The notes under the pieces: generated by a model
Database searches by the model: none
What the model saw: only the letters and a program-made list of their open reading frames with translations
What the model was told of the DNA's origin: nothing
NCBI GenBank assembly: GCA_019058275.1
Contig: JAHLVW010000031.1
Location: forward strand, 1-13,034
Length of the DNA stretch: 13,034 nucleotides
Origin: Candidatus Heimdallarchaeota archaeon
Lineage (GTDB): Archaea > Asgardarchaeota > Heimdallarchaeia > JABLTI01
Reading direction: 5' to 3'
Shown here: positions 9,133 to 12,100 of the stretch, piece by piece
How positions within the stretch are numbered: the stretch's first letter is position 1
Layout of the letters: every line of letters starts with the position of its first letter
Program-made: the position numbers and the translations under genes

Positions 9133-12100
9133 TTATCTCTCCATCCAATTATTTAACTGAACTAGAACCCCTCTTAACATATTTTCAAGTGCTGTTGATT
9201 TTCGTTCAATTCCTAAAATCGGTGATTCTTCTAAAAATTCCATTATATATTGTTTTATTATTGAAGTTAATAATTTTGAATTATAGACATCTTGTTTTTT
9301 TACAATAGAAAAGTCACCCTTATTTTTCAATTTGTAGTTCAGCAAATTAAAAAGCAATTCAATAGTTTTATCTTTAACATTTAAGAAGTAAAAATATGAC
9401 TTATTTAGACCTATTTTACGTTCTAACAATTCTTTTTCAAGCAATTCCTTAAGAAGTAATCTAGTTCTTTCATATTTCAATCCAAGAAAATTCTTAATGT
9501 CATTAATAGTGTAACCTACAAACCTTTGATTCTCATTGATTTTCATAACCAAAGTTAATAGAATATAAAAAGCCCAACGACGCTCACGTTTCTGATATTT
9601 CGTCAGTGAGACATGATACTTTTCCTGGGTGGAATTATAAGTCAAATCGACAATAGTTTCTTCTTGTCCAAAGGGATTGTTCATTGATTTTCTTCGAAAA
9701 ACTTCTTGAGCTTTTTTTCGAGCAATAAATTTATGCTCAAAATTTTCATAGAGAAATTTCCATTCATTTGAACAAAGATCAATTACTTTGAGTATTTTCT
9801 CAAAATCTTTTGTTTGAAAATATAGTGGTTGATAATCTGCTTTCTTTAGTTCTATATCAATAATTTCTTTTAGGTCATTCTTTGATAGCTGTTCCCAATC
9901 ATCGGTATCAAATCTATTAGATAAATTATCTAAAAAAATACGAAATGCTTGTAAGTAATCTTCATAAGCATTTTTTAATGGTTTCTCCTGGTTTTTATAG
10001 CTAATTTTAAAGTTTAGAATTCGTTCTGCGAGTACTTCAAATTTCTTGAGAGATGAAAGCTTAATATCATAAAGAGGGATTGCTCCTCTTCCAAGGAAAA
10101 GCCTGCAATCCTTGCTTGTAATTTCCCCATTACTAATAGCCTCTGCTAAAACAAAAATAACAATTAACCGAACAAAGTCAACCAGATCAAGAAAAAGACC
10201 AATTCGATCAATATCTGATTTGCTTTTACGATAATGAAGAAAACCAGCACCTAAATCAACATCAATTCCAACCTTCTTATGGATGATTTTCAAATCATCT
10301 AAAACAACCTTAAAGAGATGGTTAAGCATTGAGTCCAAAGGGGAGTACGCACATGTACGAGTAAAAACAGCAAAGACCAGCCAACTGACTAACCGACTTA
10401 CTACTCGTCCCCAGGAACGAATGCCAGCTTTTCTACCAACTTTTTTCAATATTTTAAAGGCTTGTTTGAATGCTTGGGCTTCGAGTAACCTTGCTGCTTC
10501 TGGATTAGTTACTTTACCTTTCGCTCGCATGAGTATTTTAATTGACTTACCAAGTTCTTTGTCAAAATTATGACTTCGTTTTCCTTTTCCTTGGGTTAGA
10601 TTATTACTAAAAGCCAAGATGAAACAGATTACAGAATTAACTTTGCTAATTAAGGAGGGATTTATCATCAAACCATTTTTTCGCAATTCTTCAATTGTTC
10701 GTTGGTAGCTTTGCCTAGTGGTCTCATCTAATGATGTCTTGGCATCAACATTAGGAATTGGTTCGTTGTGTTCTTCCTCAGAAGCTTGTTTTTTGGGCTT
10801 TTTCCGATAGATTCGTGTAACACCTATTCGTTTTAACTCCTCCTCTATTTCGAGATGTTTTTGTCCTAGAAAATAAATCCTTTCAAGTTCTGTCAATAGA
10901 TACTCTCTTCCATTGAAAACAAGAAAATAACTCTTTAATTTATTATCAATTGATAATTCCTCTAAATTCTCGTCAATGCAAAGCTCTAGAATGTCTTCAT
11001 CTCTAACTGTTAATGGGATTCGTTCTTCTTTTTGCTGTAATATTTCAGGTTCATAAGCAATCTTGCTAATAATAATCGAACGAATCACATTTTTATTATC
11101 GCTTAAACAGCGAACTTTTTGTCTCTCATCCAACAAGATATATCTAGAATTACAATTAGAGCAAATAATGGTTTTTGAAGGGAAAAATGGATTCTCTTTT
11201 GTGCCAAAGGATTTAATCTGTTGTTCACAAAAAAGACAAACATGTTTGTATTGTTTTTGTGAATTATTTTCTTCTATTGAAAGTGCTTTCATGAGTTCTC
11301 GAGTGTAAGAACTAAAATCCAAATAATCTATCGTAAAGTCTTTACTTTCGTTTGCTTCTTGATACATATCACATGCTCGAGTGTTTCTTGGAATTGTATT
11401 AAAAGCTCGTTCTACTTGTTCTTGTGTTAGAGAGCTATAAGCAAATTCTGCCAAAAGGTGATTTGGAATACAAAGTCTTGTTTTGGAATCATAGGAAACA
11501 CAAGTACCACATACCTCAACTAAGTGTGGTTCTGCAGAGAAATTTTCTTCAGTGCCATAAATAGCTTCTTCGTGAAAAACACCTTTTGTTGTGATCTTTA
11601 GACAATCACCAGTACGTACCAGTCGCTCCAGAACTCCTTTTACTGGTTTCATGCTGACACCAGTACGAATAGCTAGTTGCTGTGCAGTGCAATTCTCTCT
11701 AGAGACAATTTTCTGAATATAGTCTTCAAGGAACTCTTTGGTATAAATCTTTGTCGTTCTATAATCCTCAAGCTCTTCAACAACTTCATCTACTGCTTCC
11801 ACCTCTTCTATTTGTTCGTTAATGCTTCTAGGAAGAGCAGAGCTGCTTAGGACTTTGTGTTCTTTCATGATAGTTTTTTGTGCCTCAAGACTCCTCTTTG
11901 CTTCCTCAGCTAAAAAGCCAAAATCTTCATCCAAACCTTCAAAGATATCTAAGGCAGCGCGAAATGAATAGCTATTGTTCAATGCTTTTTGAATCTCATG
12001 GTTCGCAGCATGATTATCATCTATGTAAAAAACATCCCAGATAATAGCTATGTCACTGAAATCATTCAAGAGCTCCTCCATATCTTTCTGAGAGAGCAAA

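Follow-up and report, generated by a model that had tools for sequence, protein, structure and literature searches.

A diverged Asgard Cas1 protein as probable cargo of a large IS607-type element

Genes and features of the locus

The window, by which we mean the whole stretch of 13,034 nucleotides analysed here, is a complete contig of a Heimdallarchaeota archaeon. It carries the gene of a giant protein with a Cas1 domain, followed by those of a helicase, a metallophosphoesterase, a restriction-modification enzyme, a LAGLIDADG protein and part of a TnpB (Table 1). The 5′ end of the giant gene runs 172 bp past the contig, with the first 58 codons missing from the window, and the complete protein (P0001) was taken from locus L008 of a second assembly (GCA_019058195.1), which is 99.9% identical and differs from the window at only 8 positions. 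Relatives at 62% identity bear the name Heimdallarchaeota.

Table 1. Features of the window and of the giant Cas1-domain protein, with positions as numbered in the window.
Feature	Positions	Strand	Remarks
5′ part of tnpB	1-976	minus	stop at codon 318
LAGLIDADG + XRE-HTH protein	1221-2756	plus	head-to-head with tnpB
Type IIG restriction-modification gene	3101-6031	plus	optional cargo
Calcineurin-like metallophosphoesterase	6054-6677	minus	domain match
MrfA/YprA-like DEAH helicase with MZB zinc domain	6705-9131	minus	intact Walker A and DEIH; deviant motif VI
aCas1 giant protein gene	9133-13034	minus	1,357 aa complete; frame 9133-13032 open at contig end
Dead Ski2/Hel308-like helicase part	11932-13034	minus	one RecA-like domain and WH/ratchet helices
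Winged helix-turn-helix	11542-11739	minus	model residues 490-555 similar to 2cwe (Z 10.6, rmsd 2.2); weak TrmB match
Cys4 metal cluster 1 (C566, C569, C579, C612)	11371-11511	minus	invariant in 19 homologues
Cys4 zinc ribbon (C657, C660, C682, C685)	11152-11238	minus	invariant in 19 homologues
Probable Cas1 N-terminal beta domain	10807-11019	minus	predicted; beta-rich in the model
Cas1 helical catalytic domain	9802-10734	minus	profile, Foldseek, VIA, conservation
Motif LLEAQA	10488-10471	minus
Motif PLDSMLNH	10341-10318	minus
Motif GAGFLH	10251-10234	minus
Motif LDLVDFVR	10191-10168	minus
Catalytic codon E909	10482-10480	minus
Catalytic codon H991	10236-10234	minus
Catalytic codon D1007	10188-10186	minus
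Catalytic codon D1010	10179-10177	minus
C-terminal winged helix of the kind seen in family 2 casposases	9355-9501	minus	profile match to BlaI repressor (E=4e-4)

The N-terminal part of the giant protein (residues about 30-425 of the AlphaFold2 model) resembles the helicases Hjm, Hel308 and Brr2, with Z about 17, and has neither a Walker A motif nor a DExH box, its motif II reading IVFLAP. Further on, the beta-rich segment that probably represents the N-terminal domain of Cas1 gave a non-significant comparison with the same part of canonical Cas1 (hhalign probability 0.14). An initial annotation of this DNA had supposed that the fused domains, instead of Cas2, provide the substrate specificity of the enzyme. 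This view finds partial support: domains of nucleic-acid-binding type are present, and neither cas2 nor a CRISPR array occurs in the full 24-kb locus.

Among the neighbouring genes, the MrfA/YprA-like helicase reads QRIARER, not QRxGRxGR, in motif VI (7875-7895, minus strand), a deviation that may alter its ATP coupling; a literature search for Asgard YprA helicases yielded no paper. The phosphoesterase gene follows that of the helicase in all nine loci of sufficient length, and in a sister clade the two are fused. The restriction-modification gene is found again in L011 and is missing from L001, L010, L012, L167 and L168. Its GC content lies below that of the neighbouring genes and its DNA is 81% identical to the L011 copy, as compared with about 68-74% for the flanking genes, which suggests that this cargo was exchanged recently. 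The most constant partner of the giant gene is the LAGLIDADG-HTH gene, both being present in the same eight of the ten genus genomes. The stop within tnpB is due to a single base at position 25, near the contig end, which is not seen in L008, where TnpB has 539 aa and intact RuvC residues (D/E/D); the right end of the element lies 48 bp beyond the tnpB stop, on contig C5. An Atlas search gave a NERD-like lead for a gene of 722 aa. No CRISPR, tandem or terminal repeats were found in the window or in L008, and the Rfam search gave no match.

Identity of the Cas1 domain

The giant protein had been described initially as harbouring a catalytically intact-looking but highly diverged Cas1 domain, on the basis of four motifs, all of which we find on the minus strand and in Cas1 order. 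The residue numbers then given for its triad (E833, H915 and D934) are right if the numbering starts with the Met at 12978, and adding 76 turns them into those of the full-length protein (E909, H991 and D1010, with D1007 for D931). The giant size holds as well, with revised proportions: instead of ~1300 aa, with ~650 before and ~260 after the domain, the full protein has 1,357 aa, with ~730 before and ~220 after the Cas1 region.

The Pfam model PF01867, which had been put forward as a check, matches neither the protein nor the domain alone; it does match 11 of 29 relatives. Single-sequence profile searches gave a match to TIGR03640 with E=0.02, and the PADLOC Cas1 model matches the protein at 7e-7. 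The alignment of 29 homologues contains invariant E, N, H and D residues together with two arginines, and the first match for a profile of relatives is the casposase of M. mazei (6OPM, E=1e-6), whose catalytic residues E162, H232 and E247 (PMC6977970) align with E909, H991 and D1010. The comparison of an AlphaFold model (pLDDT 84.7, pTM 0.85) with Cas1 and casposase structures, also proposed at the outset, came out positive: the top 42 Foldseek matches are all Cas1 or casposases, and the VIA comparison with the Cas1 fold gave Z 20.7 and rmsd 3.0 Å over 251 aligned residues. By alignment, E833, H915, D931 and D934 (in the initial numbering) would map to the casposase active site, and they are near-invariant among 63 homologues (H and D in 63 of 63, E or D in 62 of 63, and D or E in 62 of 63). 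The active site thus appears intact, as had been claimed, in a core whose dN/dS of 0.04-0.06 indicates purifying selection.

At the level of sequence and predicted structure, these data confirm that the domain is a real Cas1 relative within the Cas1 superfamily, and catalytic activity is likely. It is hardly credible, on the other hand, that we are dealing with an inactive relic or a chance match of motifs: the silence of PF01867 and the loss of the left end and tnpA from the window's copy could be taken in this sense, but the domain reaches Z about 20 against Cas1 structures, all 63 homologues share its H and D, and its core evolves with a dN/dS of about 0.05. In a tree, the Cas1 of the 1,357-aa protein lies far from the two CRISPR Cas1 proteins of the host genome, whose two true cas1-cas2 loci are on other contigs, with cas2 only there. 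The protein is an aCas1, a family already catalogued computationally. To our knowledge, no aCas1 protein has ever been assayed.

The IS607-type element and its ends

The vehicle of this gene was analysed in nine loci of this aCas1 clade, which were collected through intact aCas1. The nine related loci hold an element of 11-17 kb with identical gene order: the left end, an IS607 tnpA, a 307-aa gene with an OB-fold lead (0.84 in an Atlas search) whose product is a probable SSB, a RadA-like ATPase, aCas1, the MrfA-like helicase, the phosphoesterase, the optional restriction-modification gene, the inverted LAGLIDADG-HTH gene, tnpB, and the right end. TnpA scores 184 bits on NF033518, exceeding the cut-off. 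A conserved left end stands before tnpA, and a conserved right end lies 13-48 nt past the tnpB stop, with other flanks in every copy. The two ends are asymmetric, have variable first bases and lack terminal inverted repeats; they contain an imperfect inverted repeat, with ATGGACAA some 19 nt in from the left end and TTGTCCAT 12 nt in from the right end. The 3′ region of tnpB is structured (folding z -3.6) and, given its position with tnpB at the right end, the adjoining flank would serve as guide; except for tRNA-Leu in the case of the C53 copy, no second genomic target of the TnpB guides was found.

Smaller and composite forms also occur in genome G000. One is a gene-free derivative of 355 bp (C45:13189-13544), which has the two ends and the 3′ tail of tnpB. 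Another is an element nested at a GGGT inside the tnpA of a second element (C101:47717-47910), where the DUF1295 insertion is delimited by the left end of the outer element and the right end of the inner one.

Five empty sites each show a single GGT that matches the element junctions, with no variable duplication. They are a GH20 gene, broken by L012; a DUF1295 gene, split by a sister element and intact in L008; a tRNA-Gly gene, where L010 ends; the site of the window's own element, where in four sister genomes a GGGT stands ahead of the right-flank sequence, with ABCE1 and a tRNA synthetase gene as neighbours; and a tRNA-Leu gene, where a further copy ends. The targets are (G)GGT, and the background of GGGT is 0.001 per base. 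Several IS607-type ends lie in or beside tRNA genes for Gly, Leu and Thr (L010, and C53 and C89 of G000), a location that is probably due to GGT enrichment there.

The ends of IS607 elements follow known rules, with a GG core, a (G)GG target, no target duplication and an imperfect inverted repeat (PMC6188088). Because the GGT junctions fit these rules, TnpA matches its profile and a Cas1-free bacterial IS607 element has both ends of the same type, we conclude that the element is of IS607 type, with the proviso that a strictly sequence-specific 3-bp duplication looks the same as a shared core by sequence. As the junctions bear the signature of the IS607 serine recombinase and not that of Cas1, aCas1 is here probably internal cargo of the element.

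Recombinase decay and retention of aCas1

TnpA looks intact in only one of the nine copies (C117) and aCas1 in seven, counts of retention that are biased, as the loci were found via intact aCas1. In the remaining copies, tnpA has suffered a frameshift, a deletion or a mutation of the presumed catalytic serine, or is missing altogether; tnpA or a remnant of it abuts the left end in seven of the nine loci. A search of 11 related genomes, whose assemblies break at repeats and leave element bodies unassembled, detected no IS607 TnpA; some of these relatives hold complete 11.2-kb sister elements, with both ends and aCas1 and without tnpA, and near-identical right ends have recently multiplied there at new sites. 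Neither the left end nor tnpA remains in the window's copy, and its RadA gene is frameshifted, so this copy is probably fixed in place unless moved by homing.

This decay could be read as a sign that aCas1 itself is the transposase of the element, as proposed for aCas1-TnpB loci (PMC10691335), reading a subterminal motif and duplicating GGT, with tnpA as a vestige. The complete 11.2-kb elements devoid of tnpA, the state of TnpA (broken or absent in eight of the nine copies, undetected in the 11 related genomes) and the strong conservation of aCas1 would all be expected from such a role. We consider it quite unlikely, however, in view of the asymmetry of the ends, whose first bases vary and which lack terminal inverted repeats, of the same type of end bounding a Cas1-free bacterial IS607 element, and of the tnpA or remnant kept at the left end of seven of the nine loci. 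The known casposase duplications are, moreover, of 13-15 bp, and TnpA-less derivatives mobilised in trans are common among TnpB elements (PMC10691335).

The wider aCas1 family and tRNA islands

Genes for aCas1 were found in 23 of 400 genomes of the phylum. The host genome has 14 aCas1 loci of about five clades, nearly all of them beside a LAGLIDADG-HTH gene. Several aCas1 modules without IS607 ends start right behind an intact tRNA (Pro, Ala, Lys or Leu) and end at a copy of the last 30-36 bp of that tRNA; no tyrosine or serine recombinase is recognisable inside these tRNA-island modules, and the sister modules show no terminal repeats. One module type occurs in both vehicles, a tRNA-Pro island and an element with TnpB and right end, at 73% nt identity. 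RadA and SSB are missing from the sister clade. On contig C11 of genome G082, the middle copy of a tRNA tail has a G-C pair in the T-stem at a position that is A-T in both the tRNA and the distal copy, and this compensatory difference between successive copies suggests that the elements carry the tRNA tail themselves, which makes a CRISPR-like duplication less likely.

Genome G000 has at least 20 partial copies of tRNA 3′ ends, in arrays behind tRNA genes (C108, C33, C52, C48, C107, C19, C53 and C84), and between the copies lie cassettes of 0.6-3 kb with toxin-antitoxin-like genes and transporters. No tyrosine integrase was found on these contigs; three solitary tyrosine recombinases of one size class (480-490 aa) are on C20, C36 and C78, away from the arrays.

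Arrays of this kind raise the idea that aCas1 is an integrase that captures kilobase cassettes between tRNA 3′ repeats, a CRISPR-like memory in which the tRNA would be the leader and its last 33 bp the repeat. It would account for the number of partial copies in the genome (at least 20), for the position of aCas1 modules, which in several genomes come first after an intact tRNA, and for duplications that begin 30-36 bp before the CCA end. The T-stem difference in G082 is nevertheless easier to explain by ends that travel with the element than by copying of the target. Decayed modules make up some of the later units, partial copies are also present in genomes without detected aCas1, and the copy in the window occupies a site other than a tRNA, all of which renders this idea decidedly improbable.

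Other associations of aCas1 were seen in further genomes. In genome G307, five dispersed copies (L056-L060) combine aCas1 with two 270-aa RAMP-like (ARAMP-like) genes, each of them followed by a conserved 110-nt element that resembles the hammerhead ribozyme core and has no Rfam match; a right-end-like match beside a RAMP-linked aCas1 falls within a host gene, and we discard it as a chance match. In other Asgard classes (L063 on C7 of G127, and G122), aCas1 domains are part of helicase fusions of 2,000-2,770 aa.

A possible role in homing

The reading that we favour, tentatively and at a little below an even chance, is that aCas1 is a Cas2-independent strand-transfer enzyme that helps to copy and retain a large IS607-type element at empty sites cut by TnpB. 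A serine recombinase, in cis or in trans, would make the ends and the first insertions. Presumably descended from a casposase-like integrase, with sister modules that would insert at tRNA 3′ ends, aCas1 would act as a Cas2-independent Cas1 transesterase at the core of a mobile module with the MrfA-like helicase, the phosphoesterase and the LAGLIDADG-HTH protein, which in this clade would also comprise the RadA-like ATPase and the probable SSB. It would have been kept as the strand-joining enzyme of a recombination kit encoded by the element: TnpB would cut the empty allele, the phosphoesterase and the helicase would process the break, SSB and RadA would bring about its pairing with the filled allele, and aCas1, which its dead helicase part, its wHTH and its zinc domains would anchor to DNA, would join or resolve the branched intermediate. 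As an outcome, the 11-17 kb element could be copied and retained after decay of its recombinase. This homing role is inferred, and the absence of RadA and SSB from the sister clade, together with the frameshifted RadA gene in the window's copy, weakens it.

A bolder proposal would have aCas1, together with the domains fused to it and the RadA, SSB, helicase and nuclease encoded alongside, integrate the 11-17 kb at RNA-guided TnpB breaks independently of the serine recombinase. This we regard as improbable; if true, it would amount to a natural RNA-guided, Cas1-based system for the integration of large cargo.

The same operon of aCas1, helicase and phosphoesterase may also be seen as a non-programmable system of defence or DNA degradation, similar to DISARM or Hachiman, in which a dead helicase adaptor works with a DUF1998-type helicase and nucleases, and which moves passively in IS607 elements or, via tyrosine integrases in trans, in tRNA islands. 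The MrfA/YprA-type helicase indeed matches the DruE, DpdJ and DrmA models, the fold of the dead helicase resembles HamB and DrmA, among others, restriction-modification and NERD nucleases are frequent cargo, and the module outlasts the loss of TnpA, consistent with a benefit for the host. Six tyrosine recombinases are encoded elsewhere in the genome, but none near an aCas1 island. Shorter aCas1 clades, moreover, retain the triad and the tRNA-proximal position without helicase and phosphoesterase, and PADLOC gave no whole-system match, so that we judge a defence system, the main rival of the homing reading, to be rather unlikely.

Beyond the role in homing that we favour, the transposase question can be tested directly, given the mapped ends, the empty sites and a candidate serine recombinase that is intact. 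These elements also extend what IS607 elements are shown to carry, to 9-14 kb of recombination and defence cargo.

Comparison with known systems

The group of aCas1 proteins goes back to the Asgard Cas1 of Makarova et al. (2020, CRISPR J 3:156), as cited in PMC8730458 and PMC10691335, and aCas1-TnpB loci were classified by Altae-Tran et al. (2023) as Cas1H-Asgard-1 and -2 (PMC10691335); Cas1 is not mentioned in Wu et al. 2022 (PMC8813620). The protein described here shares with these groups an extremely diverged Asgard Cas1, the lack of an array or cas2, the link to TnpB and the suspicion of a mobile element. It differs from Cas1H-Asgard-1 and -2 in having IS607-type ends and a serine recombinase: aCas1 is internal, with three to four genes between it and tnpB, and it does not replace a Y1 or serine transposase, tnpA or its remnant being present in seven of nine loci. 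The GTTCACTCA motif reported downstream of tnpB in Cas1H-Asgard-1 and -2 (PMC10691335) is absent from eight of our nine loci, and one match with 1 mismatch straddles the junction. For this aCas1 clade, the evidence from the junctions therefore points away from the published suggestion of aCas1 as transposase.

IS607 elements normally consist of two genes. The elements studied here resemble them in the serine recombinase on the left and tnpB on the right, the GG-containing core, the (G)GG target, the absence of variable duplications, and an imperfect inverted repeat whose copies lie at different distances from the two ends. They depart from the usual form in their size of 11-17 kb, in GGT as the shared core, and in a cargo made of a second strand-transfer enzyme of Cas1 type, a RadA-like ATPase, a probable SSB, a helicase and a nuclease. 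A Ser-3 branch of IS607 with helicase or WhiA/meganuclease-like cargo has been described (PMC10691335).

With family 2 casposons (M. mazei 6OPM, A. boonei), which offer the closest solved structure by profile, aCas1 shares the E/H/acidic triad, a C-terminal HTH and the absence of Cas2. Casposases target the 3′ ends of tRNA-Pro and tRNA-Leu, and sister aCas1 modules sit at the 3′ ends of tRNA-Pro, tRNA-Leu and tRNA-Ala. Unlike casposons, the complete elements have no PolB in their gene lists, no terminal inverted repeats and a single shared GGT in place of the 13-15 bp target duplication, and their Cas1 bears about 730 extra N-terminal residues. The Cas1 of CRISPR adaptation has the same fold and catalytic residues, but is distant in the tree, and neither cas2 nor an array accompanies aCas1 in the 24-kb locus. 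The aCas1 family itself is thus known, and what is new is the IS607-type vehicle around it. The same Cas1 module switching between tRNA islands and TnpB transposons bears on the union of Cas1 and TnpB at the origin of type V CRISPR.
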